Below are positions 14,279 through 63,185 of a stretch of DNA of 64,000 nucleotides, in pieces (position 1 is the stretch's first letter; each line of letters starts with the position of its first letter). The notes below the pieces were generated by a model that made no database searches, was not told where the DNA came from, and was given only the letters and a program-made list of their open reading frames with translations. This stretch comes from Candidatus Omnitrophota bacterium (GTDB lineage Bacteria; Omnitrophota; Gorgyraeia; Aquiviventales; Aquiviventaceae): positions 8,686 to 72,685 of the forward strand of contig JACPTX010000028.1 in the NCBI GenBank assembly GCA_016192545.1. Reading direction: 5' to 3'. Both the position numbers and the translations under genes were made by a program.

Positions 14279-14850
14279 TTTCTCTGATGATGAGACTCTC
14301 TCAGCTCATGATGGCGGTGGCCTTGTGCGGGATGGCCGGCTGCAGCCCGCCGGGCCAGTCCGAGAAGCTGCGCAAGGAAGTGCTCAGCGCCGATCCGCCC
14401 TTTGCCAAGGTCCTGGACCGGCGCGATGAGCTGGCCGACAAGATCACGCTCCTCCAGCGGGAGCTGGCCTTGAAGAAGAGCACGGTCGAGCGCCGGGTCG
14501 CCCAGCTGCGCGCCGAACTGCGCGAGGCGAAGCGCGAGGTCGCGCAGAAAGTCCGGCAGACCGCGGTGCAGCTGAAGCCGGAACAGGAGCGGGTCGAGCT
14601 GGCCGTCGGGAGGGCGGCGGAAGAGCTCAAGACCAAGCGGGCGCATCGCGACGGGCTCGCGCGCTCCATCAGCCGGATCCGCAAGGCGCTGGGGGACAAG
14701 AGCGCGACGTGGACGGCAGCCGACCGCTCCCGCCTGGCCCAGGAACTCGACGACCTGGCGCGGGAAACGCAGCGCCTTGACCAGGAGCTGGCCGTCCTCG
14801 CCAAGCACCTCCGCCTCCTGAAGGCCAAGCGCCTCCTCCTCCGTCTATAG
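14266..14850 (+). CDS. coiled-coil lipoprotein (lipobox ...LCGMAGC)
   Basis: Signal peptide plus lipobox Cys, then long Arg/Glu/Leu-rich coiled-coil. Alternative start ATG 14287. Confidence 0.55.
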   Translation: MSRVVSLMMRLSQLMMAVALCGMAGCSPPGQSEKLRKEVLSADPPFAKVLDRRDELADKITLLQRELALKKSTVERRVAQLRAELREAKREVAQKVRQTAVQLKPEQERVELAVGRAAEELKTKRAHRDGLARSISRIRKALGDKSATWTAADRSRLAQELDDLARETQRLDQELAVLAKHLRLLKAKRLLLRL

Positions 14851-14895
14851 AAGTGACCGTCACTTTTCCCGCTTTGCGAAGTGACTGTCACTTTT
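14850..14895. repeat. tandem pair of 18-bp palindromic motif GAAGTGAC(C/T)GTCACTTTT (motif 2), centres 28 bp apart
   Basis: Copies at 14850-14867 and 14878-14895; AAGTGAC-N-GTCACTT is a perfect palindrome. The first copy starts at the lipoprotein-gene stop (TAG 14848-14850). The second overlaps the GTG/ATG region upstream of pabB. Confidence 0.6.
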
Positions 14896-39462: not shown

Positions 39463-40419
39463 ATGTGGCCTCGCAGGATTGTCCTCCTCGCCTTCCTCGC
39501 GCTTGCCGTCGGGGCGCCGGAACAGGGTGAAGCCGGCTGGGTCTGGTCGCCGCAGACCGGCTGGATCGGCCCGTCCGGCGCGGTCAAGGACACCCCGGCG
39601 GAGCAGATGGCCCATGCCATGAGCTTCTTCCAGAAGCCGGACTACGACAAGGCGCGGATCGAGTTCAAGAAGCTCATCCGGCGCTACAAGGATTCCCCCG
39701 AGGCGCCCGAGGCCCAGTATTTCCTCGGCCGCTGCCATGAGGAGAAGGGGGATTACTACGAGGCCTTCCTCGAATACCGCAAGACGATCCAGGTCTATCC
39801 GTCCACCGTGCGGTTCAGCGAGGTCCTGGAGCGGATGTATCAGATCGGCAACTACTTCCTGAGCGGCAAGAAGCGCCGGCTGTTGGGGACGGCCGCGCTC
39901 CTGCCGGCCCGCGACAAGGCCATCGAGGTCTTCAAGGCGATCAGCGAGGAGGGGCCGTTCAGCGACGTCGGGGAGCTGGGGCAGTATAAGCTGGGCATCG
40001 CGCATCTGGCGCTCGGCGAATACGAGCAGGCGGTCGTCGCGTTCGAGCAGCTCATCGACCGCTACCCCGACTCGCCGCTCGTTGACGATGCGCGCTTTCA
40101 GCTGGCGCAGGCCAGCCTCAAGGGCACGTTCGAGCCCGGCTACGACCAGCACGCCACCGACCAGGCCATGGAGCAATTGCACGTCTTCGTGGAGGAATAC
40201 CCGGGCAGCGACCTCTCGCCTGAGGCGTCGGAACGCATCACGGGCCTTCGGGAGCGCCGGGCGGAGCACGAGTTTCAGGTGGGGCGGTTTTACGAGGACC
40301 GCAAGCAGTTCGCCTCCGCGCTGGTGTCCTATCGGGAGGTGGTAAGCCGCTACGCGGATACGTCCTGGGCCTCGAAAGCCACCGCCCGCATCGATGCCCT
40401 GGAGTCCAAGGTCCAATGA
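39463..40419 (+). CDS. bamD: BamD-like TPR protein (outer-membrane protein assembly factor)
   Basis: Signal peptide and TPR repeats with BamD-like pattern (...ARIEFKKLIRRYKDSPEAPEAQYFLGRCHEEKGDY..., ...AVVAFEQLIDRYPDSPLVDDARFQLAQ...). No lipobox Cys seen. Confidence 0.6.
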   Translation: MWPRRIVLLAFLALAVGAPEQGEAGWVWSPQTGWIGPSGAVKDTPAEQMAHAMSFFQKPDYDKARIEFKKLIRRYKDSPEAPEAQYFLGRCHEEKGDYYEAFLEYRKTIQVYPSTVRFSEVLERMYQIGNYFLSGKKRRLLGTAALLPARDKAIEVFKAISEEGPFSDVGELGQYKLGIAHLALGEYEQAVVAFEQLIDRYPDSPLVDDARFQLAQASLKGTFEPGYDQHATDQAMEQLHVFVEEYPGSDLSPEASERITGLRERRAEHEFQVGRFYEDRKQFASALVSYREVVSRYADTSWASKATARIDALESKVQ

Positions 40420-41003
40420 TGGTCAGCACGCAGAAGGCAGAATGCAGAAGGCAGATCATCTCCCGGATATTCCTCCGCTGCTTCCTGCCTACTGCCTCCT
40501 GCCTCCTGCTGGCGGGGTGTGGCTACACGACACGGCCGGGGCTGGCCGCGCATCTGAAGACCATCTACGTGAAGCCCATCACGAACAAGATTGACCTCAC
40601 CCAGCTGACGAACGACTACGATCAGATGCCGATCTACCGGCCCGGGATGGAAACGACGATCACCAAGGCGATCGTCGAACGGTTCCAGTTCACCGGGCTC
40701 ATGCGTCCGGCCAGGCCTGAGAAGGCGGACAGCCGCCTGGAAGGGGAGCTGGTGACGTTCCGGCGGGATGCGTTGCGCTACAACGCGTCCCGGCAGGTCG
40801 AGGAATGGCGGCTGAGCATCGTCCTCAACCTGACGTTCTACGACCTGCACAGCAACACCGTGACGTGGGAAGAAACCAGCTTCACCGGCGACACGACCTA
40901 CTTCGCGCTCGGGGCCAACGCGAAGTCCGAAGCCACCGCCCTTGACCTGGCCATCACAGACGTCGCCCGCCGCGTGGTCGAACGCACCGTCGAAAACTGG
41001 TGA
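40416..41003 (+). CDS. lptE: LptE-like LPS-assembly lipoprotein
   Basis: Lipobox (LLAGCGY). Size and position immediately upstream of holA fit the lptE-holA pairing. Start overlaps the bamD stop (ATGATG). Confidence 0.55.
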   Translation: MMVSTQKAECRRQIISRIFLRCFLPTASCLLLAGCGYTTRPGLAAHLKTIYVKPITNKIDLTQLTNDYDQMPIYRPGMETTITKAIVERFQFTGLMRPARPEKADSRLEGELVTFRRDALRYNASRQVEEWRLSIVLNLTFYDLHSNTVTWEETSFTGDTTYFALGANAKSEATALDLAITDVARRVVERTVENW

Positions 41004-47287: not shown

Positions 47288-47295
<8 letters not shown>

Positions 47296-47334
47296 CAGTC
47301 ACTTTTTGTGCGGGAAAAAGTGACAGTCACTTTT
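47288..47334. repeat. tandem pair of perfect 19-bp palindrome AAAAGTGACAGTCACTTTT (motif 2), centres 28 bp apart
   Basis: Copies at 47288-47306 and 47316-47334. The prfB stop codon TGA (47293-47295) lies inside copy 1; the secA ATG is at 47349. Confidence 0.6.
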
Positions 47335-50300: not shown

Positions 50301-50558
50301 AAGACCCCGCAGCAGGAGGTCCATGAGGAGGTTTCGACGAAACTGGCGGACCGTTTTCCTGCAGAAGGCTCTAGGCTGAAGGCTGAAGGCCGGTCAGAAG
50401 AGGGAAGCGGGTTTGGCCTGGAGCCTGGAGCCTCGAGCCTGGAGCCAGCCCGTAGCTCTCCGGGGATGCCGTACCACCGGACCGGCCCCAAGGTCGGTAG
50501 GAACGACCCCTGCCCCTGCGGCAGCGGCCTGAAATACAAAAAGTGCCACGGCAAATAA
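47349..50558 (+). CDS. secA: preprotein translocase ATPase SecA
   Basis: DEAD-like motor motifs, preprotein crosslinking and helical scaffold domains, and a C-terminal zinc finger ([14 protein letters not shown]). Confidence 0.95.
50364..50446. repeat. palindromic heptamer-array element (GCTNNAG x3-4 / CTNNAGC x4) inserted in-frame in the secA C-terminal linker
   Basis: Left arm GAAGGCTCTAGGCTGAAGGCTGAAGGC, right arm GCCTGGAGCCTGGAGCCTCGAGCCTGGAGCC. Translates as ...[32 protein letters not shown]... just before the zinc-finger tail. Confidence 0.5.
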
Positions 50559-50563
50559 TCGGA

Positions 50564-50627
50564 ATAGGGGACGTTTCTATTTTTCAATCACCCTCATCCA
50601 AAATTAGAAACGTCCCCATTTTTCTAC
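50564..50627 (+). terminator. secA terminator: 18-bp AT-rich near-perfect inverted repeat (GGGGACGTTTCTATTTTT / AAAATTAGAAACGTCCCC) followed by T-tract
   Basis: Arms at 50565-50582 and 50599-50616 with one indel. Downstream ATTTTTCTACTT. Shares the ACGTTTC unit with the heptamer repeat at 50915. Confidence 0.5.
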
Positions 50628-50632
50628 TTCGC

Positions 50633-52156
50633 TTGATCTTGGCGCTCAGTAGCGCCGCGCTCCTCGTCGTGTCCTTCCCGAATGTCAACCAGCCGTACTG
50701 CGCGTGGGTCGCGCTGGTGCCGTGGCTGGTGCTGCTCCAAAAAGTGCCCTCTTTAGCGGCGTTCGGGTGGTCGTGGCTGACCGGCTTCCTTTTTTTCCTC
50801 GGCTCGCTGTGGTGGCTCGTACATCTGACGGCCTTCGGCGGCCCGGCGGCGATCCTCGGCTGGCTCGCGCTGTGCGCCTACCTCGCGCTGTACTTCGGCG
50901 TATTTGGGTGGGTCGTTCAACGTTTCACGTTGCACGTTTCACGTTTCGCGCAGTTGTTACTCGTTCCTTCTGCATGGGTGGCACTCGAATATCTGCGCAG
51001 CCACCTCCTCTCAGGATTCGGCTGGAACCTCCTGGGCTATTCCCAGACGCCGGCGCTGTCGGCGATTCAGATGGCGGATCTCACCGGCGTATGGGGCGTG
51101 TCGTTCGTGCTCGTGCTGATGAACGCCGGCATCGCGCAGTACCTCACGGAGCAGGACCGCCGGCGGCGCGTGATCGGCGTGCTCATCGGCATCGGGGCGG
51201 TGGCGGCCATGTGGCAGTACGGCACGTGGCGGCTGGGCCAGACGTTCCAGGGCCCGCCGGCCCGGATCGCCGTCGTGCAGGGCAACATCCCGCAGCAGGA
51301 GAAGTGGGACGAGGCGTTTGAGGCCGCCATCCTGGAACGGTATGCGCGGCTGACGCGCCAGGCCGCCCAACAGGGGCCGCAGCTCGTCGTCTGGCCCGAG
51401 ACCTCGGTGCCCGGATATTTGGGACTCGATGAGGCGTTGACGGACCAGGTGAGTTTCTTGGCGCGCAGCGTGAAGATCCCGTTGCTGGTCGGCGCGCCGA
51501 TGGGCGTGTTTCGAGGTGAGCGGTGGGCTCTGACCAACAGCGCGGCCCTGCTCGAGGCCGACGGGGCGCCGTTGGAATCGGCCGCGCCGTGGCTGCGCGC
51601 CATCCTGCCGCCGATCGGCGAGTTCGTGCCGGGCCACGAGTTCACGGTCTTCAGACTCGGCCGTTCAAGGTTCAAGGTTCTAGGTTCTAGGCCAGACCTT
51701 GAACCTTCAACCTCGAACCTCGAACTGGCGTTTAGCGTGTTGGTCTGTTTCGAAGACGTCTTCCCGGAGCTGGCCCGCCGGTTCGTCCGGCGCGGCGCGC
51801 GGCTGCTGATGACCATCACGAACGACGCGTGGTTCGGCAAGACGGCCGCGGCCTACCAGCATGCCCAGGCCTCGACCTTCCGGGCGGTCGAGCTGCGCGT
51901 ACCCATGGTGCGGGCCGCCAACACCGGCTGGTCCGGCTGCATTGATGCCCACGGCCGGTGGGTCGCCAGCGTCAAGGACGCCGCAGGGCAGGAGCTCTTC
52001 ACGGAGGGCGTGGCGCTCTGCGAGGTGGCGGCGGGTGACGCCGACCCCGCCTTCGGCGAGGCAGGGACTCCCTACCGGCGCTGGGGGGACTGGTTCGCCT
52101 GGCTGTGCGTGCTGGGATGCCTTGGCTGGGCAATTTTTGCTATAATGAAACGTTAA
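50633..52156 (+). CDS. lnt: apolipoprotein N-acyltransferase
   Basis: N-terminal multi-TM domain and CN-hydrolase domain with a catalytic-Cys region (...SVLVCFEDVFPE...). No ATG/GTG near the conserved N-terminus, so TTG 50633 (MILALSSAALLVVSFP...) was chosen; start uncertain. Confidence 0.8.
   Translation: MILALSSAALLVVSFPNVNQPYCAWVALVPWLVLLQKVPSLAAFGWSWLTGFLFFLGSLWWLVHLTAFGGPAAILGWLALCAYLALYFGVFGWVVQRFTLHVSRFAQLLLVPSAWVALEYLRSHLLSGFGWNLLGYSQTPALSAIQMADLTGVWGVSFVLVLMNAGIAQYLTEQDRRRRVIGVLIGIGAVAAMWQYGTWRLGQTFQGPPARIAVVQGNIPQQEKWDEAFEAAILERYARLTRQAAQQGPQLVVWPETSVPGYLGLDEALTDQVSFLARSVKIPLLVGAPMGVFRGERWALTNSAALLEADGAPLESAAPWLRAILPPIGEFVPGHEFTVFRLGRSRFKVLGSRPDLEPSTSNLELAFSVLVCFEDVFPELARRFVRRGARLLMTITNDAWFGKTAAAYQHAQASTFRAVELRVPMVRAANTGWSGCIDAHGRWVASVKDAAGQELFTEGVALCEVAAGDADPAFGEAGTPYRRWGDWFAWLCVLGCLGWAIFAIMKR
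50915..50949. repeat. five tandem heptamers GTTNNRC (GTTCAAC GTTTCAC GTTGCAC GTTTCAC GTTTCGC) within lnt
   Basis: Direct heptamer array, also readable as two ACGTTTCACGTT 12-mers. Encodes ...VQRFTLHVSRFAQ... Confidence 0.4.
51664..51725. repeat. palindromic heptamer-array element (GTTCAAG/GTTCTAG x4 - CCAGAC - CTTGAAC/CTCGAAC x4) inserted in-frame in lnt just upstream of the catalytic-Cys region
   Basis: Left GTTCAAGGTTCAAGGTTCTAGGTTCTAGG, right CTTGAACCTTCAACCTCGAACCTCGAAC. Encodes ...RLGRSRFKVLGSRPDLEPSTSNLELAF... between conserved ...GHEFTVF and SVLVCFED. Confidence 0.55.
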
Positions 52157-52170
52157 CCCTCTCTATTCCC

Positions 52171-53694
52171 GTGGCTTCCAACGACCAAACCGTCAACCGG
52201 CGCGACAAATTTGACGCTCTCAAGCGGCAGGGGCGTTCGCCATTCGACCAGCGGCGCTTCCACAAGGGAGAGTCTATTCGCGAACTGGTCAACAGCTTCA
52301 CGCCGGAGACGCTCGTCGTCTCAACTGCGGGGCGTCTGAGCGCGATCCGCGGCCACGGCGGGCTGATCTTCGGAGATCTGCGGGACGCCACCGGCAAGAT
52401 TCAGATTTCAGTCAAGCGGGACGCGGTCGGAGAGACGGCGTGGTCGCTCTTTGAGCACCTGGATCTCGGGGACATCATCGGCGTCACCGGTCCGCTGTTC
52501 AAGACCAAGACCGGCGAGGTGACGGTCGCCGTGGACTCCGTCACCCTGCTGGCGAAAGCCCTACGGCCGATGCCGGAGAAATGGCACGGGCTGAAGGATG
52601 TCGAGGTCCGCTACCGCAAGCGGTATTTGGACCTCATCGCCAACGAGCCGGTGCGCCGGGTATTCGAGCAGCGCGCGCGCCTGCTGGCGAGTTTGCGCCG
52701 GACGCTGGACGCGGGCGGGTTCCTGGAAGTCGAAACGCCCATGATGCACGCCATCCCGGGCGGGGCGGCAGGGGAGCCGTTCGTCACGCACCATAAGGCG
52801 CTGGACGTGGACCTCTATATGCGGCTGGCTCCGGAGCTGCACCTGAAGCGGCTCCTGGTCGGCGGCTTCGACCGCGTCTATGAGATGAACCGGTCGTTCC
52901 GCAACGAGGGCATTTCGAGCCGGCACAACCCCGAGTTCACCATGCTCGAGGCCTACCAGGCCTACTGGGACTGTCGGGATATGATGGAGCTGGTGGAGCG
53001 CCTCATCAAGCAGGCCGCGCAGGACGTGCTGGGGACGCTGACGTTCCAGTACCAGGAGCGGACCATTGACTTGTCGCCGTCTGGGTCCTGGCCGAAGTTG
53101 TCGTTTACCGAGACCATGCAACAGCTTGGCTTGTCACCCGATTCGTCACAGGAACAGATTCAGCGCGTCTTGGAAAAGAAGGGCATCAAGCTCAAGGGAC
53201 TGACGCGCTCCCAGCTCGTGCGGCTCACCGAGCAGCTGATCGAGCAGTTCGTCGAACCGCAGTCCACGCGGTTCCCGCTCTTCGTCGTGGACTACTGGAC
53301 CGAGCTGTCGCCGCTGGCCAAGAGCAAAGCGGACAACCCGCTGGTGGCGGACCGCTTCGAGCTGTTCATCGGCGGGATGGAAGTCGCCAACGCGTACTCC
53401 GAGCAGAACGACCCCATCGAGCAGCGCCGCCGCTTCGAGGCGCAAAGACGAGAGCGCGTTCAAGGTTCAAGGGTGAAGGTTCAAGGGAAAAACCTCGAAC
53501 CTCGAACCTTGAACCTTGAACGGCAGATTGATGAGGACTTCCTTGAAGCGCTGGAATACGGGATGCCGCCGGCTGGCGGGCTTGGCGTCGGCGTGGACCG
53601 GCTCGCGATGCTCCTGTTCAATCAACCCTCGATCAAGGATGTCATCCTGTTCCCGTTATTAAAGCCCAGCGAGGGGTCCCGTGATGCCGTATGA
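52171..53694 (+). CDS. lysS: lysyl-tRNA synthetase (class II)
   Basis: OB anticodon-binding N-domain (...GHGGLIFGDLRD...) and class II motifs 1-3 (...FLEVETPMMH..., ...FRNEGISSRHNPEFTMLE..., ...GGLGVGVDRL...). Start taken as GTG 52171 (VASNDQTVNRRDKF...) just after the lnt stop; uncertain. Confidence 0.85.
   Translation: MASNDQTVNRRDKFDALKRQGRSPFDQRRFHKGESIRELVNSFTPETLVVSTAGRLSAIRGHGGLIFGDLRDATGKIQISVKRDAVGETAWSLFEHLDLGDIIGVTGPLFKTKTGEVTVAVDSVTLLAKALRPMPEKWHGLKDVEVRYRKRYLDLIANEPVRRVFEQRARLLASLRRTLDAGGFLEVETPMMHAIPGGAAGEPFVTHHKALDVDLYMRLAPELHLKRLLVGGFDRVYEMNRSFRNEGISSRHNPEFTMLEAYQAYWDCRDMMELVERLIKQAAQDVLGTLTFQYQERTIDLSPSGSWPKLSFTETMQQLGLSPDSSQEQIQRVLEKKGIKLKGLTRSQLVRLTEQLIEQFVEPQSTRFPLFVVDYWTELSPLAKSKADNPLVADRFELFIGGMEVANAYSEQNDPIEQRRRFEAQRRERVQGSRVKVQGKNLEPRTLNLERQIDEDFLEALEYGMPPAGGLGVGVDRLAMLLFNQPSIKDVILFPLLKPSEGSRDAV
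53458..53521. repeat. palindromic heptamer-array element (GTTCAAG x4 - AAAAA - CTCGAAC/CTTGAAC x4) inserted in-frame in lysS between motif-3-proximal conserved blocks
   Basis: Left GTTCAAGGTTCAAGGGTGAAGGTTCAAGGG, right CCTCGAACCTCGAACCTTGAACCTTGAAC. Encodes ...RERVQGSRVKVQGKNLEPRTLNLE..., ~12-15 aa more than the usual spacing between ...QRRRFEAQ... and ...DEDFLEALEYG... Confidence 0.55.
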
Positions 53695-54785
53695 GGTGTG
53701 GCTAGGCCTGCGCTACCTGTTGAATCGGCGGCGCGAGCGGTTCGTGTCGGTCATCGCGGTGCTGTCCATCGGCGGGGTCGCGCTGGGGGTCATGGCGCTG
53801 CTCATCGTCCTGTCGGTGATGAGCGGGTTCGACCACGACCTCAAGGAAAAGCTCATCGGCGCCAACGCCCACCTGACCGTGGAGGCGGCGAGGGACATCG
53901 GCCAGGTCGAGGAGTTGGTCCGCGCGATCTCGGCGAGCGAGCACGTCGTCGGCGCCAGCCCCTTCATCACCGGGCAGGCGATCGTGCGGTCTCGTCGTCG
54001 GCCAGCTGCCGGCGAGCGACCAAGATGTGGTGATCGGGGTGGAGCTGGCGCGCTTCCTGGGATTACGGCGGGGCGATCCGCTGCGGCTCATCAGCCCGGC
54101 GGACGGCAAGGCGCATGAGCTGGTGGTGAGCGGCCTGTTCCGCTCCGGTATGTACGAATTCGACGCGGGGCTCATCGGGGTGAGCCTGCGGCGCGCGCAG
54201 CAGCTCTTCGCGCTGCCCGGGACGGTGACGGGCGTGGCGGTCCGCGTCGACCAGCTCGAGCGGGCCGAGGCCGTCAAAGCCCAGCTGGCCCAGGCGCTGG
54301 GCGGCGCGTACCTCGTCAAGACGTGGATGGAATTGAACCAGACGCTCTTCGACGCGTTGAAGCTGGAGAAGATCACAATGTTCGTCATCCTGACGCTCAT
54401 CGTGCTCGTCGCGGCGGTGAACATCGTCTCGACCCTCATCATGATGGTCATCGAGAAGACGCGCGACATCGGGATCCTCAAGTCGATCGGCGCCTCCAGC
54501 GGCTCGGTCGGCTGGATTTTTACGTGGCAGGGGCTCCTCATCGGCGCGATCGGCACGACGCTGGGGCTGGCCGGGGCGTGGCTGGTCGTGTGGCTGCTGG
54601 ACACGTACCACTTCATCCAACTGCCCAGCACGATCTACTACCTGGATCACCTGCCGGTGCGCATCGAGTGGGCCGACTGGGGCGTGACGGTCGGCGCGGC
54701 GATGCTCATCAGCCTGCTGGCGACGGTGTATCCGGCGCGGCAGGCCGCGCGGATGAATCCGGTGGAAGCGCTGCGCTATGAGTAA
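53681..54785 (+). pseudogene. lolE: lipoprotein-releasing system permease LolC/E (FtsX-like), interrupted by a 1-nt frameshift near 53987
   Basis: N-terminal part (MMPYEVWLGLRYLLNRRRERFVSVIAVLSIGGVALGV...SPFITGQAIV) is in frame 2 up to ~53986. The conserved continuation (GLVVGQLPASDQDVVIGVELARFLGLRRGDPLRLISP...) reads in frame 0 from 53988 to 54785. Confidence 0.65.
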
Positions 54786-54787
54786 GG

Positions 54788-55468
54788 ATGCTTGAAGCGC
54801 GGCATGTGCACAAGACGTACCGCACCGGCGCGGTGCCGCTGCATGTGCTCAAGGGGGTCAACCTGACGGTGGCACCGGGGGAGTTCGTCGCGGTCACCGG
54901 CCCCTCCGGCGCCGGGAAGTCGACGCTGCTGCACGTGCTGGCGGGGCTGGACGTGCCGAGCCAGGGCGACGTGCTGTGGGAAGGCCGGTCCCTGGCGAAG
55001 ATGACCGACCGGCAGCGCGCGCACTTCCGTAATCGGACGATCGGGGTCATCTTTCAGTTCTATCATCTGCTGCCGGAGCTCTCGGCGCTGGAGAACGTCA
55101 TGCTGCCGGCCCTGGTGGAGGCCCAGGAGGGCCGCCGGGAGCTGCGCCCGCGGGCGCTGGAGTGCCTGGAGCAGGTGCGGCTGAAGGCCCGCGCCGCGCA
55201 CAAACCCTCGCAATTGTCGGGCGGGGAGCTGCAGCGGCTGGCGATGGCGCGCGCGCTCATCAACCGCCCGAAGGTCATCTTCTGCGACGAGCCGACCGGC
55301 AACCTCGATTCGCAGACCGGGCAGGCGGTGATGGACCTGCTGGTGGATCTGCATCAGCGGCAGCACATGGCGCTGGTGCTGGTGACGCATGAGCACGCGT
55401 TTGCGCAATTGGCGGATCGGTGGCTGGGGCTGCAGGACGGGCAGTTCGCACATGAAGCCGCAACTTAG
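54788..55468 (+). CDS. lolD: lipoprotein-releasing system ATP-binding protein LolD
   Basis: ABC ATPase Walker A (GPSGAGKST), signature ([15 protein letters not shown]), Walker B ([12 protein letters not shown]). Operon context with lolE. Confidence 0.85.
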
Positions 55469-55504
55469 CGAGCGAAGCGATGCTAAGTTGCATGGCTGAA
55501 TGTG

Positions 55505-55588
55505 CCCCGCCCGCTTTGCTTCGCAAAGCGAAGCAGGCGGGGTCAATTCGCGCAGTGACTTACGTTCGCTAGCGCTCCGTAAGTCACG
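55505..55588. terminator. two GC-rich hairpins after lolD / before ilvE: nested hairpin (CCCCGCC...GCTTCGC-AAA-GCGAAGC...GGCGGGG) and 10-bp IR GTGACTTACG/CGTAAGTCAC
   Basis: 55505-55542 forms a ~14-bp interrupted stem. 55554-55588 is a perfect 10-bp IR with a 13-nt spacer. No U-tract follows. Confidence 0.3.
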
Positions 55589-55609
55589 CGCTCATTGAAG
55601 GAGGGCGAC

Positions 55610-56476
55610 GTGAAAGTCTACCTGAACGGCAAATTCGTGGACCGGCAGGCGGCGACGGTGTCGGTGTTCGACCACGGGCTGTTGTACGGCGACGGGGTGT
55701 TCGAGGGGATCCGCTCCTACAACGGGCTCATCTTCAAGCTCCACGAGCATCTCGACCGGCTCTTCGAGTCGGCGCACACGATCATGCTCAAGATCCCGCT
55801 CTCGAAGCCGGAGCTGGCCGACGCGGTGCGGCAGTCCCTGCGCGTGAACAAGCTGTCCAACGCCTACATCCGGCTCGTCGTGACGCGCGGCGAGGGGGAC
55901 CTGGGGCTCGACCCGCGCAAGTGCACGCGCCCGACGGTGTTCGTGATCGCGGACCGCATCGAGCTCTACCCCAAGAAGCTCTACGAGCAGGGCCTGGAGC
56001 TCATCACGGTGGCGACCCAGCGCAACGTGCCGGAGGCGCTGAACCCGCAGATCAAGTCGCTCAACTACCTCAACAACATCCTCGCGAAGATCGAGGCGAT
56101 CACCGCGGGATATGAAGAGGCGATCATGCTCTCCCCGTCGGGCTACGTGACCGAGTGCACCGGGGAGAATATCTTCGTCGTGTCAGGCAAGCGGCTCCTC
56201 ACGCCGCCGCCCTACATCGGCGTCCTGCGCGGGATCACGCGCCGGAGCGTCATGGAGCTGGGGCGCAAGCAGAAGCTGGACGTGGCCGAGGAGCTCCTGA
56301 CGCGCTACGACCTGTTCAACGCGGAGGAGTGCTTCCTGACCGGCACCGCCGCCGAGATCGTGCCGGTGGTCAAGATTGACGGCCGCGTGATCGGCGCCGG
56401 CAAGCCCGGCCCGGCGACCAGGCAGCTCCAGGCGGCCTTCCGCCGGCTGACGAAGACCGAGGGTGTGCGCTACTAG
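55610..56476 (+). CDS. ilvE: branched-chain amino acid aminotransferase
   Basis: Fold-type IV (MKVYLNGKFV...SVFDHGLLYGDGVFEGIRSY...). Start taken as GTG 55610 with SD GAAGGAGGG 5 nt upstream (the ORF-track TTG 55595 lies inside the SD). Confidence 0.85.
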   Translation: MKVYLNGKFVDRQAATVSVFDHGLLYGDGVFEGIRSYNGLIFKLHEHLDRLFESAHTIMLKIPLSKPELADAVRQSLRVNKLSNAYIRLVVTRGEGDLGLDPRKCTRPTVFVIADRIELYPKKLYEQGLELITVATQRNVPEALNPQIKSLNYLNNILAKIEAITAGYEEAIMLSPSGYVTECTGENIFVVSGKRLLTPPPYIGVLRGITRRSVMELGRKQKLDVAEELLTRYDLFNAEECFLTGTAAEIVPVVKIDGRVIGAGKPGPATRQLQAAFRRLTKTEGVRY

Positions 56477-56553
56477 TTCCGACGCATCAGGTTACGTCAT
56501 ATCCCCGGTTCGCACACGGTCGGTGGCGCTGTGATTTTCGATGAAAAACTGCT

Positions 56554-56574
56554 ACAATTAAGGTGTCTGACACC
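56554..56574 (+). promoter_or_regulatory. -10 box TACAAT immediately followed by 13-bp perfect palindrome GGTGTCTGACACC (motif 1 variant), 15 nt upstream of mcsA
   Basis: TACAAT 56554-56559, palindrome 56562-56574, ATG 56589. Same -10-plus-palindrome layout as at 3313-3350. Confidence 0.45.
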
Positions 56575-56588
56575 GTGAGGGAATCGCC

Positions 56589-57107
56589 ATGGTCTGCGAC
56601 GCCTGTAAACAACAGCAAGCGACGGTCCATTTGACGGAAATCGTCAATGACGAGATGACCGAGCTGCACCTCTGCGAGGCGTGCGCCAACCAGAAGGGCG
56701 CCCAGGTGGAAAGCCACTTCGGGCTGTCCGACTTGCTGGGGGGCCTGGCCGAGGTCGGCAAGACCCAGGAGCCCGAGGAAGAGGTCGCCGCCAAGGCCTG
56801 CCCCAGCTGCGGGATGACCTATGAAGATTTCCGCAAGGTGGGGCGGCTGGGCTGCGCGGAGTGCTACACGACCTTCAAGCGGAATCTGGCGACGCTGCTC
56901 AAGCGGATCCACGGCTCGCCGCATCATCTGGGCAAGTCGCCGGGCCGGCTGGTCAAACCGCCGAAGGCCAAGCTGGAGTTGACCGAGCTCAAGAAGCGGC
57001 TCGAGCGCGCGATTGAGATGGAGGAATTCGAGGAGGCGGCCCATCTCCGGGACCAGATCCGGGAGCTGGAGCATCAGGATCGCACGAAGAAGAAAAGCGG
57101 CGAGTGA
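56589..57107 (+). CDS. mcsA: McsA-like protein (zinc-finger N-terminus plus UvrB/UvrC motif); activator of protein arginine kinase
   Basis: Two CxxC zinc-finger pairs (CDACK...CEACAN; CPSCG...CAECY) and a C-terminal UVR motif (...LEFEEAAHLRDQIRELE...). Overlaps mcsB via ATGA. Confidence 0.7.
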   Translation: MVCDACKQQQATVHLTEIVNDEMTELHLCEACANQKGAQVESHFGLSDLLGGLAEVGKTQEPEEEVAAKACPSCGMTYEDFRKVGRLGCAECYTTFKRNLATLLKRIHGSPHHLGKSPGRLVKPPKAKLELTELKKRLERAIEMEEFEEAAHLRDQIRELEHQDRTKKKSGE

Positions 57108-58195
57108 CGATGGCGAAGGAACTGGACGATCTGCTGAAACAGACGAGCGAGTGGCTGCGGGGCGTGGGGCCGGTGTCGGAGATCGTGATGTCCAGCCGCC
57201 TCCGGCTGGCCCGCAACTTCGACAAGCTGCCCTTTGCGACGCGCTCGACCAAGGTCTCGCAGGCCGAGGTGCTGCGCATCGCCAAGGAGGGGATTCTCCA
57301 GGCGCCCTCGATGGGCACGCCGCTCATCTTCGAGATGGCGGAGCTGGATGAGGTGGACCGCCTGTTTCTCGTCGAGCGGCATCTCATCAGCCGGGAGCAC
57401 GCCAGCCGGCCGGACCATCGGGCGGTGGCCATCGGCAAGGGCGAGGTCATCAGCATCATGATCAACGAAGAAGACCACCTGCGCGTCCAGGTGATGCAGT
57501 CGGGGCTGAACCTCCACGAAGCCTGGACGCTGATCGACACGCTGGATGACGAGCTCTCGGAAGCCGTCCCGTTCGCCTACTCGACGGACTGGGGGTATCT
57601 CACGTGCTGCCTGACGAACACGGGCACGGGCCTGCGGGCCTCCGTGATGGTCCACCTGCCGGCGCTCGTCATCACGAAGCAGATCAACAAGGTCCTCCAT
57701 GCGATCACGAAGCTGGGGCTGACCGCGCGCGGGCTCTACGGCGAGGGGACCGAGGCGTCGGGCAACTTCTTCCAGATTTCGAACCAGGTGTCGCTGGGGC
57801 GGACCGAGGAAGAGCTCGTCGAGAACATCGAGCGCATCCTCAAGCAGGTCATCGGCCATGAGCAGAGCGCGCGCGAGGGGCTCCTGGCGCACAACCGCGT
57901 CCAGCTGGAAGACCGCATCTGGCGGGCCTACGGCATCCTCCGGCACGCGCAGACCATGAGCTCCAACGAGACGCTGGACCTGCTGTCGGCGCTGCGCCTC
58001 GGCGTCGACCTGGGGATCATGACCAACGGCAGCGCCCCCGGCCGCACGCCGCTGGACCGCTCGACGGTCAATGAGCTGCTGATCTTTTCGCAGCCGGCCC
58101 ACCTGCAGAAGGTCGAGGGCGCCAAGCTGTCCGCGCAGGAACGGGACACGAAACGGGCGGCGCTGATCCGGCAGCGGCTCGGCGTCCGCGACTGA
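57104..58195 (+). CDS. mcsB: protein arginine kinase McsB (ATP:guanido phosphotransferase family)
   Basis: Phosphagen-kinase-like catalytic domain (...YLTCCLTNTGTGLRASVMVHLPAL..., ...LGRTEEELVEN...). Confidence 0.85.
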   Translation: MTMAKELDDLLKQTSEWLRGVGPVSEIVMSSRLRLARNFDKLPFATRSTKVSQAEVLRIAKEGILQAPSMGTPLIFEMAELDEVDRLFLVERHLISREHASRPDHRAVAIGKGEVISIMINEEDHLRVQVMQSGLNLHEAWTLIDTLDDELSEAVPFAYSTDWGYLTCCLTNTGTGLRASVMVHLPALVITKQINKVLHAITKLGLTARGLYGEGTEASGNFFQISNQVSLGRTEEELVENIERILKQVIGHEQSAREGLLAHNRVQLEDRIWRAYGILRHAQTMSSNETLDLLSALRLGVDLGIMTNGSAPGRTPLDRSTVNELLIFSQPAHLQKVEGAKLSAQERDTKRAALIRQRLGVRD

Positions 58196-58213
58196 GCGAA
58201 CAAGGAGCATCCG

Positions 58214-60664
58214 ATGTTCAATAAATTCACCGAACGGGCCCGGAAAGTCATCCTGCTGGCGAAGGAAGAGGCCAAGCGGTTCAACCACGACTACATCGGG
58301 ACCGAGCACATCCTCCTCGGCCTCATCCGCGAGGGCGAGGGGGTGGCGGCGGCGGTCCTGCAGAAACTGGGCCTCTCGCCGGAGAAGATCCGCCTGGAGG
58401 TCGAGAAGCTCGTGCAGAGCGGCCCCAGCACCATGGTCTCCGGCGACATCCCCTTCACGCCGAAGGCGAAGAAGGTCATCGAGCTGGCGATGGAGGAGGC
58501 CCGGTCGCTCGGCCACAACTACATCGGGACCGAGCACCTGCTCCTCGGCCTCATCCGCGAGGGCGAGGGGGTGGCCTCGCAGGTGCTCATGAACCTCGGG
58601 CTGGACCTCAACCGCGTGCGCAACGAAGTCATCACCCTGCTGGGCTCCAGCGGCCCGGCCCCGACGGGCGGCGGCTCCTCGAAGACGAAGACGCCGGCGC
58701 TGGATGCGTTCGGCCGCGACCTCACGAAGCTCGCGCAGGACGGCAAGCTTGATCCGGTCATCGGCCGCAAGGACGAGATCGAGCGCGTCATCCAGATTCT
58801 CGCGCGCCGCACCAAGAACAACCCGGTGCTGCTCGGCGAGGCGGGCGTCGGCAAGACGGCGATCGTCGAAGGGCTGGCGCAGAAGATCGTGAAGGGCGAC
58901 GTGCCCGAGATCCTGCGCGACAAGCGCGTCATCATCCTGGACCTGGCCCTGATGGTCGCCGGCACCAAGTACCGCGGGCAGTTCGAGGAGCGCATCAAGG
59001 CCGTGATGGATGAGATCCGCCGCTCCGAGAACATCACCCTGTTCATCGACGAGCTGCACACGCTCGTGGGCGCCGGCTCCGCGGAGGGCGCGATCGACGC
59101 CTCCAACATCCTGAAGCCCGCGCTGTCCCGCGGCGAGGTCCAGTGCATCGGCGCGACGACGCTCGATGAGTACCGCAAGTACATCGAGAAGGACTCGGCC
59201 CTCGAGCGCCGGTTCCAGACGATTGTGGTCGAGCCGCCGTCGGTGTCGGAGACGATCGAGATCCTGAAGGGCCTGCGCGACAAGTACGAGGCGCACCACC
59301 GGGTGAAGTACCTCGACGAAGCGCTCGAGGCGGCGGCGAAGACGTCGGACCGCTACATCGCCGGGCGCTTCCTGCCGGACAAGGCGATTGACCTGATCGA
59401 CGAGGCGGGCTCCCGCGCGCGGCTGTCGGTCCTGACCGTGCCGCCGGACATCAAGGAGCTCGAGGAGAAGATCGAGACCATCCGCAAGGAGAAGGAAGCC
59501 GCCATCAAGGGCCAGGACTTCGAGCGGGCCGCCAGCTTGCGCGACCAGGAGCGCGAGGCGAAGGAGCGCCTGGAGAAGGTCAAGCTGGAGTGGAAGAAAA
59601 CGAAGGGCGATGCGATGCCGGTCATCACGTCGGAGGACATCGCCATCGTCGTGTCGAAGTGGACCGGCGTGCCGGTCTCGCGGCTGGAGGAGAAGGAAGG
59701 CGAGCGGCTCCTCAAGATGGAGCAGGCGGTGCACAGCCGCATCATCGGGCAGGAGGAAGCGATCTCCGCCATCGCCCGCGCCATCCGCCGCTCGCGCGCC
59801 GGCATCAAGGATCCCCGCCGGCCGATCGGCTCCTTCATCTTCCTCGGACCCACCGGGGTCGGGAAAAGCCTGCTGGCCAGGGCGCTGGCCGAGTTTCTGT
59901 TCGGCGATGAAGAGGCCCTGACCCAGATCGACATGTCCGAGTATATGGAGAAGTTCAACGTCTCCCGGCTGGTGGGCGCCCCGCCCGGCTACGTCGGCTA
60001 CGAAGAGGGCGGCCAGCTCACGGAACGGATCCGCCGCCGGCCGTACTCGGTGGTCCTGCTGGATGAGATCGAGAAGGCCCACCCGGACGTCTTCAACCTG
60101 CTCCTGCAGGTGCTGGAGGACGGGCGGCTGACGGACAGCTTCGGCCGCAAGGTGGACTTCCGCAACACGGTGCTCATCATGACCTCGAACCTCGGCGCGG
60201 AGCAGCTGAAGAAGCAGGGCAGCCTCGGCTTTGCGCCCGCGAAGGAAGAGGTCACGTTCGAGAAGATGAAGGACCAGCTGATGGACGAGGTCAAGCGGGC
60301 CTTCAAGCCGGAGTTCCTCAACCGGATCGACGACGTGATTGTGTTCCGGCCGCTCACCCGCGAGGACCTCAACCAGATCGTGGAGCTGGAGATCGGCTAC
60401 GTGAAGGAGCGCCTGCGCGAGCAGGAGGTCCTCATCGAGCTGGATCAGAGCGCCAAGGATTTCCTCGTCGAGAAGGGCTTCGACCCGGTGTTCGGCGCCC
60501 GGCCGCTCAAGCGCGTGATCCAGCGCTTCCTGGAGGACCCGCTGGCGGAGGAGGTCATCGCTCGCCGGTTCAAGCAGGGCTCGCCCGTCCGGGTCTTCCG
60601 CAAGGGCGAGCGGCTGGAATTCGAAGGCGAGCTGGTTGTGGAACGTCCTGCGACCACGAGCTGA
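58214..60664 (+). CDS. clpC: ATP-dependent Clp protease ATP-binding subunit ClpC
   Basis: Double Clp-N repeats, two AAA+ modules ([15 protein letters not shown]; [15 protein letters not shown]), a UVR linker motif and a ClpP-loop region. Confidence 0.95.
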
Positions 60665-60683
60665 CACCAGTGTCCCCTCCACA

Positions 60684-60727
60684 AAAAGTGACAGTCACTT
60701 TTTCCCGAAAAAGTGACTGTCACTTTT
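60684..60727. repeat. tandem pair of 19-bp palindrome AAAAGTGAC(A/T)GTCACTTTT (motif 2), centres 25 bp apart
   Basis: Copies at 60684-60702 and 60709-60727, 20 nt after the clpC stop and 14 nt before the mlaE ATG. Confidence 0.6.
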
Positions 60728-60740
60728 CCTGTTGCCGCGG

Positions 60741-61538
60741 ATGAAAGTGTCCCGGATCGCCGTGCCCGTCGCCGTGGCGGGCGCCTGGATGGTGGAGCTG
60801 CTGGAATACGCCGGCCACCTGGGCCTCCTGCTGGTCCAGTCGGTGGGCGGGTGTTTCCTGCGGCCGCTGCGCGTCAAGTCGATAGGCTACGAGCTCCTGA
60901 AGATCGGCGCGCAGTCCTGGTTCATCGTCTCCCTCTCCTTGCTCTTCGTCGGGATGGTGCTCGCGTTCCAGAGCGCCTACCAGATGAAGCGGCTGGCCGC
61001 GGAAATCTACATCGCCAGCCTCGTGTCGCTCTCGGTGGTGCGCGAGATCGGGCCGGTCATCACCGCCCTCATCGTCGCCGGCCGCGTCGGCTCGGCGATC
61101 GCCGCGGAGCTGGGCACGATGAAGGTGACCGAGCAGATCGACGCGCTGGTGACGCTGGCCACCGATCCGGTCCGCTACCTGGTCGTGCCGCGCCTGCTGG
61201 CCGCGGTGGTGGCCTTGCCGCTCCTGACGCTGTGGGCGGATGCGGTCGGCATCCTGGGCGGGATGCTCGTGGGGACCATGAAGCTCAGCATCCTGCCGAG
61301 CCTGTACTGGAAGATGACGACGCTGCCGCTCGTGTTCAAGGATCTGGGCTCCGGGCTGCTCAAATCCCTTGTGTTCGCGGTCATCATCTGCGTGGTGAGC
61401 TGCCTGGAAGGGTTCCGCACGGAGGGCGGGGCGGAAGGGGTGGGCCGGGCGACGACGAAAGCCGTCGTGTCGTCGTTCATCCTGATCATCGCGGCCGACT
61501 GTTTCTTCACCGCGCTCTTCTACTTCGTCGGGCGATGA
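60741..61538 (+). CDS. mlaE: ABC transporter permease MlaE
   Basis: 265 aa, 5 TM helices, typical MlaE/TTG2B pattern (...GPVITALIVAGRVGSAIAAELGTMKVTEQIDAL...). Confidence 0.85.
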   Translation: MKVSRIAVPVAVAGAWMVELLEYAGHLGLLLVQSVGGCFLRPLRVKSIGYELLKIGAQSWFIVSLSLLFVGMVLAFQSAYQMKRLAAEIYIASLVSLSVVREIGPVITALIVAGRVGSAIAAELGTMKVTEQIDALVTLATDPVRYLVVPRLLAAVVALPLLTLWADAVGILGGMLVGTMKLSILPSLYWKMTTLPLVFKDLGSGLLKSLVFAVIICVVSCLEGFRTEGGAEGVGRATTKAVVSSFILIIAADCFFTALFYFVGR

Positions 61539-61542
61539 GCGC

Positions 61543-62367
61543 ATGATTGAGATCGCCGGCCTCACGAAGTCGTTCAACAGCCATCAGGTCCTCGACCGCC
61601 TGAGCCTCACCGTCAAGACGGGCGAGACCCTGGTCGTCATCGGGCGCTCCGGCTGCGGCAAGTCCGTCCTGCTGAAGCACATCATCGGGCTGATGAAGCC
61701 GCAGGAGGGCTCCATCATCATTGACGGGATCGACGTGACCAAGCTCTCGGGGCGCGCCTTGGACGTCCTGCGCAAGCGATTCGGCATGCTCTTCCAGGGC
61801 GCGGCCCTCTTCGACTCGCTGACGGTCTGGGAGAACGTGGGGTTCGCCCTGCACGAGCACACCTCGACGGAGGAGGCCGCGATCCGCGAGCGGGTGCGCG
61901 AGTGCCTGGCGCTCGTGGGGCTGGAGGGGGTGGAGGAGCTGATGCCCTCGGAGCTGTCCGGCGGGATGCGCAAGCGGGTGGGCCTGGCGCGCGCGATCGC
62001 GATGAACCCGGATATCATCCTGTACGATGAACCGACGACCGGGGTCGATCCCATCATGGGCGACGTCATCAACGACCTCATCATCGGCCTGCGGGACCGC
62101 ATGCGCGTCACCTCGGTCGTGGTGACGCACGACATGGCCAGCGCCTACAAGGTGGCGGATCGCATCGCCATGCTTTACAATGGGGGCATCGTGGAGGTCG
62201 GCAGCCCGGAGGAGATCCGGCAGTCCCGGAATCCCGTCGTGCAGCAGTTCATCCAAGGCAAGGCCGCGGGGCCGATCCAGGAGGGCCTGCCGGACCGCCG
62301 CATCCTGTCGCGCTGGCGCAAGCTGCCGTGGAAGAGCCAGCGGAATCCGGAGGAACCGGAAGTCTGA
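61543..62367 (+). CDS. mlaF: ABC transporter ATP-binding protein MlaF
   Basis: Walker A (GRSGCGKSV), signature (LSGGMRKRVGLARAI), Walker B (IILYDEPTTGVD). Confidence 0.9.
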   Translation: MIEIAGLTKSFNSHQVLDRLSLTVKTGETLVVIGRSGCGKSVLLKHIIGLMKPQEGSIIIDGIDVTKLSGRALDVLRKRFGMLFQGAALFDSLTVWENVGFALHEHTSTEEAAIRERVRECLALVGLEGVEELMPSELSGGMRKRVGLARAIAMNPDIILYDEPTTGVDPIMGDVINDLIIGLRDRMRVTSVVVTHDMASAYKVADRIAMLYNGGIVEVGSPEEIRQSRNPVVQQFIQGKAAGPIQEGLPDRRILSRWRKLPWKSQRNPEEPEV

Positions 62368-63122
62368 TGGCACCACGCCGCGTGTCGCTCGAGATGAAAG
62401 TCGGGGCGTTCATCGTCACCGGCGTCGCCCTCCTCGTCTTCTTCCTCTTTGCCATCGGTGACCTCGCCACCTACCTGCAGCCGGGCTACTCCCTGCGGGT
62501 CCTGTTCGATTCGGCCAACGGGATCGGTGAGGGCTCCCCGGTGCAGTACGCCGGGGTGGAAGTCGGGAAGGTGGCCGTCGTCCGCATCGTGTATCCGGAC
62601 AACGGGCCGGTCCCCAAGGTCGAGCTGCTGGCGCGCCTGCCGCGCCATGTCAAGATCCGCAGCGACGACGAAGCGTCCATCAGCACCTTCGGACTCCTGG
62701 GGGAGAAGTATCTCGCGCTCATGCCGGGGCCCGGCGCGGGGGCCCTGCTCCAGTCGGGCGAGGTGCTGGTCGGCAAGCCGCCCGTGTCGACCGAGCAGGT
62801 CATCGAACGGTCCAACGAAGTCCTCTCGGAGCTCAAGCGCACCTTGGAGGGGCTGAACAATATCGTGGGGGATCCGGAAACTCGGACCAACCTGAAGGAA
62901 ACCCTGAACGAGGCCCGTGATGCCACGCGCAACTGGAAGATCCTCGGCCAGCGGTTGAACCTCGCCATGTCGCACGTCGAAGACGGCCAGGGCTCGGTGG
63001 GCAAGCTCCTCTATGACGAGGAGCTCTACCAGCGGATCGTGCTGTTCGTGGACGACCTCCGCTCGCATCCCTGGAAGCTGCTGATCCGTCCTCCAAAGAC
63101 CCAACAGAAATCAACGCGTTGA
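62367..63122 (+). CDS. mlaD: MCE-domain periplasmic substrate-binding protein MlaD
   Basis: N-terminal TM helix then MCE domain (...YSLRVLFDSANGIGEGSPVQYAGVEVGKVAVV...). Start ATG overlaps the mlaF stop (TGATG). Confidence 0.8.
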   Translation: MAPRRVSLEMKVGAFIVTGVALLVFFLFAIGDLATYLQPGYSLRVLFDSANGIGEGSPVQYAGVEVGKVAVVRIVYPDNGPVPKVELLARLPRHVKIRSDDEASISTFGLLGEKYLALMPGPGAGALLQSGEVLVGKPPVSTEQVIERSNEVLSELKRTLEGLNNIVGDPETRTNLKETLNEARDATRNWKILGQRLNLAMSHVEDGQGSVGKLLYDEELYQRIVLFVDDLRSHPWKLLIRPPKTQQKSTR

Positions 63123-63185
63123 AGGCGTTCTAGGCTCTAGGTTGAAGGCTCTAGGCCTGGAGCCTTGAGCCTCGAACCTCGAGCG
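63119..63185. repeat. palindromic heptamer-array element (GTTGAAG/GTTCTAG/GCTCTAG x5 / CTGGAGC/CTTGAGC/CTCGAAC/CTCGAGC x4), intergenic mlaD-radA
   Basis: Begins within the mlaD stop codon (TGA 63120-63122) and ends 8 nt before the radA ATG (63194). Same heptamer families as the in-frame copies. Confidence 0.55.

Follow-up and report, generated by a model that had tools for sequence, protein, structure and literature searches.

The stretch of DNA analysed here (the window: 64 kb, 67% GC, from a Candidatus Omnitrophota metagenome-assembled genome, MAG) contains a set of short elements built of tandem heptamers, whose host genes were identified by Pfam as those of SecA, Lnt, LysS, MlaD, RadA, BamD and LptE. 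Sequence inspection and Tandem Repeats Finder, which lists paired period-7 arrays at every element site (including 40430-40455 together with 40478-40509), gave a total of five palindromic heptamer elements, named E1 to E5, and one direct array. All six features lie between 40.4 and 63.2 kb of the window (Table 1).

Table 1. Positions and settings of the heptamer elements in the 64-kb window
Feature	Position	Strand	Location	Basis
E5, palindromic heptamer element	40430..40509	+	inside lptE (40416-41003)	
E1, palindromic heptamer element	50364..50446	+	SecA C-terminal linker	Pfam, arm structure
Direct array (ACGTTTC)x4, Lnt site 1	50915..50949	+	lnt, loop after YFGVFGW	
E2, palindromic element, Lnt site 2	51663..51725	+	lnt, loop before catalytic-Cys strand (..FSVLVCFED)	
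E3, palindromic element	53458..53521	+	lysS, flanked by RRFEAQ and IDEDFLEALEYGMPP	
E4, palindromic element	63119..63185	.	between mlaD and radA	arm structure, Pfam neighbours

Each palindromic element has a 5′ arm of heptamers, a spacer, which in the window measures 5-30 nt, and a 3′ arm of complementary heptamers. E1, placed between the Wing/Scaffold domain and the SEC-C zinc motif of SecA, has a 5′ arm of GAAGGCT/CTAGGCT x4, a 23-nt spacer and a 3′ arm of GCCTGGA/GCCTCGA x4. E2 is made of GTTCAAG/GTTCTAG x4, the spacer CCAGA and CCTTGAA/CCTCGAA x4, encodes the peptide RSRFKVLGSRPDLEPSTSNLE and aligns with the E. coli Lnt loop that precedes C387. E3 combines GTTCAAG x4 (with one unit GGTGAAG), the spacer GAAAAA and CCTCGAA/CCTTGAA x4; it encodes the peptide VQGSRVKVQGKNLEPRTLNLE and makes LysS 14 residues longer than the G. 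stearothermophilus LysRS 3a74. In the AlphaFold2 model of LysS the insert is coil with a pLDDT of about 50, a weak indication from a mediocre model (overall pLDDT 70.8). E4 has a GTTGAAG/GCTCTAG-type arm, a spacer and a CCTGGAG/CCTCGAA-type arm, and contains stop triplets in several frames, like other intergenic copies. E5 consists of a GCAGAAG-type 5′ arm (40430-40457), a spacer and a CTGCCTC-type 3′ arm (40478-40509), and lies upstream of the lipobox LLAGC, where it codes for the signal peptide (n- and h-regions) of the lipoprotein LptE; the LptE Pfam match begins at residue 47.

The original prediction, made from the letters of the window, had placed elements in secA, lnt, lysS and the mlaD-radA gap as well as a direct array in lnt, and all of them were found where it had put them. 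It counted four palindromes, overlooking E5 in lptE, and gave the spacer as 5-6 nt, which holds for E2 and E3 and fails for the 23 nt of E1. Its intergenic copy, E4, does lie between mlaD and radA (ATG at 63194), but the first heptamer provides the stop codon of mlaD (TGA, 63120-63122). The three genic copies that it described as in frame are so. The direct array in lnt has no complementary arm and forms no hairpin (folding z about −0.4). Besides these features, a hairpin occurs directly after the secA stop, at 50567-50617 (GGGGACGTTTCTATTTTT / AAAATTAGAAACGTCCCC); its arms hold ACGTTTC and GAAACGT, and ACGTTTC is also the unit of the lnt direct array 300 nt downstream. This hairpin may be a degenerate element or a local template.

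The arrays are period-specific. A periodicity scan of the window gave eight arrays at period 7 and none at periods 4-6 or 8-12, and none appeared in 50 Markov shuffles; across the clade (295 kb), 63 arrays were counted at period 7 versus 2, 3 and 3 at periods 5, 6 and 8. Stable hairpins are formed by each of the five palindromic elements, whichever strand is folded, with energies from −33 to −48 kcal/mol and z from −3.4 to −9.7: −47.7 kcal/mol for E1 (z −4.3), −33 (sense) and −43 (antisense) for E2 (z −6.1 and −8.4), −42 and −45 for E3 (z −8.6 and −9.7), −34.8 for E4 (z −3.5), and −38 (sense) and −48.5 (antisense) for E5 (z −4.0 and −5.4).

We then set the window against a series of comparison loci, designated by L-numbers. 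Close relatives (Lnt 50-69% identical; three of the loci are duplicates) contain 55 period-7 arrays in 226 kb, that is 2.44 per 10 kb, versus 8 in 657 kb, or 0.12 per 10 kb, in other phyla; distant LysS relatives (identity ≤56%, among the matches listed), which serve as a control and not as a statement of orthology, have 22 in 1.15 Mb. With further loci included, the count for close relatives is 61 elements in 275 kb, of which at least 37 are genic. Further copies are abundant, at about one element per 4.5 kb, roughly 20-fold above other phyla. The heptamer hairpins are thus a clade-wide phenomenon in the high-GC Omnitrophota. A typical element has arms of 26 nt (range 15-36) with 3-5 tandem heptamers that are 84% complementary, and a spacer of 14 nt (range 0-33) enriched in A (31% versus 18% background), the median element length being 66 bp. 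In 27 of the 32 palindromic elements, a phylogenetically non-independent count, the 5′ arm is G/purine-rich and the 3′ arm C/pyrimidine-rich (arm composition, 39% G versus 42% C). Note that the polarity of a palindrome is the same on both strands, hence gene orientation cannot be its source. In a low-GC relative (L029 9844-9965, 43% GC), an AT-rich heptamer palindrome, ATCGTAT / ATACGAC, lies directly after lysS and encloses a GC-rich central hairpin, which suggests that the element type reaches beyond the high-GC clade.

Comparison of orthologs gave empty, filled and half-deleted states at exactly the positions of the window elements. About 60% of LysS homologs (alignment, n = 120) bear an insert at precisely the position of E3, with the recurrent types GSRLKAQG...LQPSALNLE, SGLGAEGSG...PRAPSPEPR, GQETGGRG...PRAPRPVPP and GSRVKGEG...LHPTPYTLHP; a conserved 12-residue short form, LDAAGVKGKQRV, is found in 45 of 114 homologs. 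The neighbour-joining tree of LysS was too star-like to be read and a nearest-neighbour comparison was used in its place: the nearest neighbour shares the insert type in 37 of 114 cases versus 23% expected, the type being almost independent of LysS phylogeny. LysS proteins that are 95% identical outside the insert carry unrelated insert families with breakpoints at the same codons, and in such pairs the flanking DNA is ~90% identical as far as sharp edges (…GCCCAGCTYGA / ATTGAYGA…), between which the whole element differs. L162 has kept only the left arm of the family seen in L167, including its odd unit GGGTCAA, i.e. a deletion of the right arm.

The other sites vary in a similar manner. Lnt site 2 is empty in L161, L088, L092, L095 and L099 and filled by other families elsewhere, and other heptamer arrays occupy the position of Lnt site 1 in orthologs. 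The SecA C-terminal linker varies among orthologs, with a related element in L085 (RLKAEG..ALNLEP). Among LptE homologs, many other signal peptides derive from heptamer palindromes, the purine-rich arm giving the charged n-region and the pyrimidine-rich arm the hydrophobic h-region. On solved structures of LysRS and Lnt, the corresponding LysS and Lnt sites fall in surface loops, in line with the loop and linker positions first proposed from the window, and no ortholog was found with the same peptide lacking the repeat DNA. Overall, these comparisons indicate that the elements turn over quickly at permissive sites, by what appear to be insertion, replacement by another family and deletion, and that they survive only where they are presumably harmless: after stop codons, in surface loops, in linkers and in signal peptides.

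Since all Omnitrophota data come from metagenome assemblies, repetitive and palindromic inserts of this kind could be artefacts of the assemblers. We regard this as exceedingly improbable: filled sites recur in independent assemblies made with different assemblers (NCBI, JGI, ENA, Logan), always in frame and with colinear flanks, and finished Nostoc plasmids have the same architecture (see below).

The hairpins might also be kept by selection for a role in cis, as a 3′ mRNA stabiliser or terminator, a translational pause or an RNase III site. Many intergenic copies do lie directly after stop codons, for example of lysS (L082, L083, L085, L162) and of secA (L085, L165), and the hairpins are stable; hairpins of the short tandemly repeated repetitive sequences (STRRs) of cyanobacteria have been proposed as transcript stabilisers (PMC2670836). 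However, the antisense-strand hairpins are as stable as the sense ones or more so, and a scan with Rfam matched two tRNAs only, with no family for the elements; the lack of a sense-strand advantage and of an Rfam match argues against an mRNA-specific function. Nor is there a sense-strand bias in G:U versus A:C mismatches, sites are often empty in close relatives with no sign of compensation, and the sequence at one site can be swapped wholesale between near-identical hosts. Selection for structure is thus an unlikely account of the population as a whole; it is compatible with selfish spread, and individual copies may have been co-opted.

The elements fall into families that recur at unrelated loci. 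In L165, the lnt and lysS copies are identical at 70 of 72 positions and have the odd unit GGAGCGA in common; in L082, the copies in the same two genes match at 58 of 66 positions, and E2 and E3 of the window, with 51 of 63 nt identical, are likewise one family. Between L089 and L163 the element is 59/63 identical, with the variant unit AATTCGG in both, whereas the coding flanks are only 63% and 75% identical. More generally, elements of the same heptamer also have irregular units, spacers and ends in common, copies at unrelated loci being 88-97% identical, and the similarity ends abruptly at the element edges, the flanks being unrelated. No target-site duplication (TSD) was found at any pair of same-family copies. 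Within a genome, the lnt and lysS sites, at a distance of 1.8 kb, hold elements of one family far more often than chance would give (exact permutation p = 0.005), which points to copying between loci, preferentially local, and not to independent slippage. These data show that the elements are discrete homologous families, copied from one locus to another.

An origin in place, with arrays made by replication slippage, the complementary arm added by intrastrand template switching and the similarity between elements due to convergence, is an alternative reading. One could invoke for it the purine-rich proto-repeat AAGGGCAAGG held by the short LysS form, the existence of one-armed and direct arrays, the presence of the lnt direct-array heptamer in the hairpin 300 nt upstream and the clustering of the elements within the window. 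Slippage offers no reason to favour period 7 exclusively, though, full-length identity at unrelated loci and in different genomes, down to irregular units and spacers, is beyond convergence, and the same architecture brackets a gene in five phyla (see below). Local origin is thereby largely refuted and we judge it quite improbable. A telomerase-like healing of breaks, with repeats added at both 3′ ends, was considered because of the arm polarity and dropped because families share irregular units and spacers, and hence were copied rather than synthesised de novo.

Every genic copy keeps the reading frame. The density of stop triplets is 2.5% in genic copies (sense strand) versus 4.7% in intergenic ones, and in 14 of the 37 genic copies none of the three sense frames contains a stop. 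Arm mismatches concentrate where a perfect complement would give TGA or TAG: in the genic copies of the window, the CTTGAAC of the perfect complement is altered to CTCGAAC or CTTCAAC at in-frame stop positions. Different genes read a given family in one and the same frame, and the irregular units, which copies have in common, fall exactly where the regular unit would give an in-frame TGA. Because these units are shared, the element was already stop-free in that frame before it was copied. From the frame and the avoidance of stops, the genic copies are very probably translated as extra loops.

Such segments, hydrophilic, rich in Gly, Ser and Pro and located in loops, could alternatively be ancestral low-complexity linkers with a role at the protein level, the palindromy of their DNA being incidental. 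This we hold to be very improbable. The intergenic copies of the same families contain stops and this, with the empty sites, refutes such an origin; moreover, it is the short LysS form that looks ancestral, the peptides are unrelated between 95%-identical hosts, and the heptamer and palindrome structure of the DNA is far above chance.

A clue to the source of the elements comes from genes of the PF05635 family. The family is homologous to Avd, which in diversity-generating retroelements (DGRs) acts as the cofactor of the reverse transcriptase, and some of its members are encoded in 23S rRNA intervening sequences (IVSs) (PMC10053308). Nostoc plasmids (100 kb) contain “four helix bundle protein” genes bracketed by heptamer arrays, and a profile search of all open reading frames (ORFs) in 2.3 Mb detected PF05635 genes only there and in the Omnitrophota locus L176. 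With eleven further genes taken from plasmids, 14 PF05635 genes were examined, and all 14 have arrays of period 7 or 8 at their ends (period 8 in two). In 10 of the 14 the arrays are clearly inverted, purine-rich upstream and pyrimidine-rich downstream; the hosts are Nostocales, Stanieria, Picosynechococcus, Azospirillum and Riemerella, together with the Omnitrophota locus L176. An array on one side only is seen in L178, Calothrix and Gemmatirosa, and direct arrays on both sides in Pseudanabaena. The association spans five phyla (Omnitrophota, Cyanobacteriota, Alphaproteobacteria, Bacteroidota and Gemmatimonadota). In the plasmid cassettes, the arrays of the two sides pair at 17-20 of 21 nt; the ribosome-binding site (RBS) is often part of the upstream array, and the stop is often overlapped by the downstream one.

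The window elements are architecturally identical to the arms of these cassettes, and some units coincide: the Riemerella heptamer GGTTCAA/TTGAACC is that of the window lnt and lysS elements, and GGCAGAG/CTCTGCC of Stanieria and Nostoc is close to the heptamer of the LptE element. The L176 cassette reads (AGCACTA)x4, RBS, PF05635/bAvd gene, (TAGTGCT)x4. Comparison of L176 13590-14070 (filled) with L166 3719-3736 (empty) places the whole cassette between two genes with no duplication. The ATG of the downstream gene overlaps the end of the PF05635 gene, and the signal peptide of the downstream gene now has its h-region encoded by the pyrimidine arm, which parallels the short LptE element. In Nostoc, a gene-less palindrome (L179 950-1095) can be aligned with the PF05635 cassette next to it at both ends, up to the ATG and beyond the arrays, and looks like an internal-deletion derivative of this neighbour.

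Several cassettes have particular settings. In Picosynechococcus (L184 398-754) and Pseudanabaena (L186 398-757) plasmids, the PF05635 gene is co-oriented within a CRISPR-Cas operon, in the cas10-cmr3 and cas6-cas4 gaps, respectively; the arrays flanking the latter are long and direct, not inverted, with (AAAGCTA)x15 and (AAAGCCA)x10. Arrays of period 8 stand beside the gene in L184 (Picosynechococcus) and L190 (Gemmatirosa) (GGAGATAA-type; CTCCTGCC x4), so that the unit length is not strictly 7 everywhere.

Taken together, we consider it probable that the high-GC Omnitrophota clade harbours a large population of short dispersed repeats, copied between loci and tolerated as translated loops, and we infer that they are selfish, non-autonomous derivatives of the PF05635 cassettes. 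With moderate confidence, the elements would be the gene-less miniature form of a cross-phylum cassette composed of a purine-rich heptamer array, a small PF05635 gene (a four-helix bundle, Avd-like) and a pyrimidine-rich heptamer array, and, with the same confidence, the cyanobacterial STRR hairpins would be a gene-less form of the same kind; the derivation in Omnitrophota is suggested by shared architecture. How copies are made is more tentative: the paired arms could form a long stem in single-stranded DNA or RNA, a probable substrate for copying to which we attach low confidence, and the candidate movers, proposed with equally low confidence, are a route combining a reverse transcriptase with an Avd-like protein, a RAYT-like Y1 transposase (RAYT, repetitive extragenic palindrome-associated tyrosine transposase) or template switching in replication. 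For the host, the elements would mostly be a tolerated burden, with occasional co-option as a stop (mlaD), a signal-peptide segment (lptE) or a 3′ hairpin.

A number of points weigh against this interpretation. The sampling is centred on the secA-lnt-lysS region, so that the genome-wide density may fall well below one per 4.5 kb, and the first 40 kb of the window are without any element. The polarity count suffers from the non-independence noted above, and sharing of heptamers by genome label is not significant (permutation p = 0.18), because the same families recur in different genomes and sites. Everything said here on mobility is drawn from comparison, and where one family stands in place of another at the same codons, strains may instead have exchanged alleles by recombination. 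PF05635 is not known as a transposase family, and its genes could be passengers that insert into existing hairpins. A profile search gave no PF05635 ORF in the window, and there is only one such gene in about 300 kb of the clade.

A wider proposal, tentative and in our view rather doubtful, is that PF05635 cassettes form a widespread, unrecognised class of mobile elements, with STRRs and in-frame hairpins as their gene-less derivatives, moving by way of the stem formed by the two arrays and possibly through an RNA and reverse-transcriptase route with the Avd-like protein as cofactor. If true, this class would link STRRs, ORF-bearing 23S rRNA IVSs and palindromic inserts in essential proteins, and the elements would be pre-adapted to translation in one frame. 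The tie to PF05635 in five phyla offers a concrete candidate for testing in the tractable Nostoc and Anabaena. Apparently, a link of STRR-like repeats to Avd-like gene cassettes is undescribed so far: the literature that we searched contained no connection between PF05635 genes and heptamer arrays and no such elements in Omnitrophota. STRRs have long been used as fingerprinting markers of cyanobacteria with their origin and function unexplained, and here elements of this kind flourish in a phylum that is uncultured and unrelated to cyanobacteria, largely inside essential protein genes, where one discrete family gives way to another at fixed codons at a pace above that of host-protein divergence. 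This amounts to a natural experiment on the tolerance of SecA, LysRS and Lnt to insertions and on new peptide segments arising from selfish DNA. In practice, the inserts inflate or fragment alignments of Omnitrophota marker genes and can mislead gene callers at starts and stops.

Two other features of the window are recorded here. Tandem pairs of a 17-bp palindrome, AAAGTGAC(N)GTCACTTT, with a distance of 25-28 nt, stand at 14850-14894, 47289-47333 and 60685-60726, in intergenic sites just upstream of gene starts (14881, secA 47349 and mlaE 60732). The window gives 12 strand-hits versus 0.01 expected, whereas the 177 other loci give none, and the palindrome has the look of an operator specific to this genome or of a separate repeat family. 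In SecA (47349-50558), the Pfam match to the P-loop of the second nucleotide-binding domain (NBD2) takes 290 residues (464-753) over 196 profile positions, corresponding to an insertion of about 95 residues without heptamer structure.

We finally compared the elements with known repeat classes, none of which they match as a recognised family, as had been noted from the window at the outset. Three candidates were set aside. Integron attC sites have 7-bp core sites, but most of the families misfit GTTRRRY/RYYYAAC and attC has no tandem units; PARCEL elements, coding repeats of 75 nt (PMC2996958), are unrelated; and matches of viral contigs to (GGCTCAA)3 are long direct microsatellites in unrelated contigs only. 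The latter, in the IMG/VR contigs L170-L175, are non-palindromic direct (GGCTCAA)n runs of up to about 16 units beside (GGCTCT)n, mostly of low GC, and probably unrelated to the elements.

Rickettsia palindromic elements (RPEs), the functional analogue of the present elements, comprise several families, inserted in frame, translated and seen as selfish DNA that proteins can bear at their surface (PMC10969869, PMC3733652). The Omnitrophota elements likewise are palindromic repeats in frame in unrelated, often essential genes, and the resemblance to RPEs and STRRs pointed out in the original prediction holds by structure and frame. RPEs are, however, about 100-150 bp long with a CGTC tag (PMC3733652), whereas the present elements have a much shorter median length, are built of heptamers, show no CGTC enrichment and belong to an unrelated lineage.

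Repetitive extragenic palindromic sequences (REPs) have no TSD, lie mostly after genes and sometimes inside them, can supply stop codons, and may differ between related species at one and the same site of a gene (PMC3733652). The Omnitrophota elements, short hairpin repeats with no TSD that are found after or inside genes and supply stops, resemble them in this, and the clade has a RAYT-like Y1_Tnp gene, observed at L166 6409-7098, L176 10001-10699 and L177 1323-2021. Its distance from lnt is 1.2 kb in L166 and 1.8 kb in L176. It sits between an HTH-cupin (helix-turn-helix) regulator and Big/CBM60 genes in L166, L176/L177 and the P0248 contig, and is nearly always single-copy, with about 44 homologs at ≥49% identity, the named ones being Omnitrophica MAGs; it was not seen among the window ORFs scanned, which lie outside 26-38 kb. 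The hairpins could hence be REP doublets copied by this syntenic, single-copy transposase via single-stranded DNA hairpins. Yet REP stems are 5-13 bp with a GTAG (or CGTC) tag at one end and are not tandem heptamers (PMC3733652), while the arms here are 15-36 nt and heptamer-built, and GTAG and CGTC are not enriched (3 and 2 of 32 elements versus 1.1 and 4.1 expected at random positions). The best NCBIfam match of the gene, REP-associated tyrosine transposase, scores 60 bits against a cutoff of 80, neither a heptamer array nor a strong hairpin flanks the gene in L166 or L176, and cassettes of Nostoc, Riemerella and Azospirillum have the same arrays while no RAYT is seen near them. We therefore find REP-type copying improbable and favour derivation from the cassettes.

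With MITEs (miniature transposable elements with inverted repeats), the elements have in common that they are short, non-autonomous and with inverted ends, and that they apparently come from a longer, gene-carrying element, as in the L179 case of Nostoc. They differ in having no TSD, also at the filled/empty cassette site, and in lacking a transposase gene of their own kind; what the “autonomous” partner carries is an Avd-like gene instead.

The IVSs of 23S rRNA interrupt an essential RNA gene at fixed helices, where they form stems; they occur sporadically and vary from strain to strain. This behaviour mirrors that of the elements in protein genes, and the PF05635 proteins of IVSs and the Avd of DGRs are of the same family as those of the cassettes; the difference is that no rRNA gene is involved here, and no DGR reverse transcriptase or template repeat was seen beside the cassettes.

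The closest likeness in build is to STRRs, which are tandem 7-bp units able to form hairpins between genes, of unknown function (PMC2670836); the title of Vioque (1997), as it appears in PMC2858038, reports STRRs inside the RNase P RNA gene. The Omnitrophota elements share both traits, period 7 only and inverted arrays that form hairpins. The Nostoc plasmids, whose arrays we take to be STRRs, display the same period specificity, inverted layout and purine-rich 5′ arm, and include a compact palindrome with 26/31 pairing (L179 44814-44886). Units of the GGCAGAG/GGCAGAA and GTCAGAA types are common to the Omnitrophota elements, Nostoc and Stanieria. The host, in contrast, is not a cyanobacterium and is of high GC, and the units mostly differ. 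What further sets the Omnitrophota elements apart from STRRs is the massive in-frame colonisation of essential protein genes, together with the documented replacement of one family by another at fixed codons.

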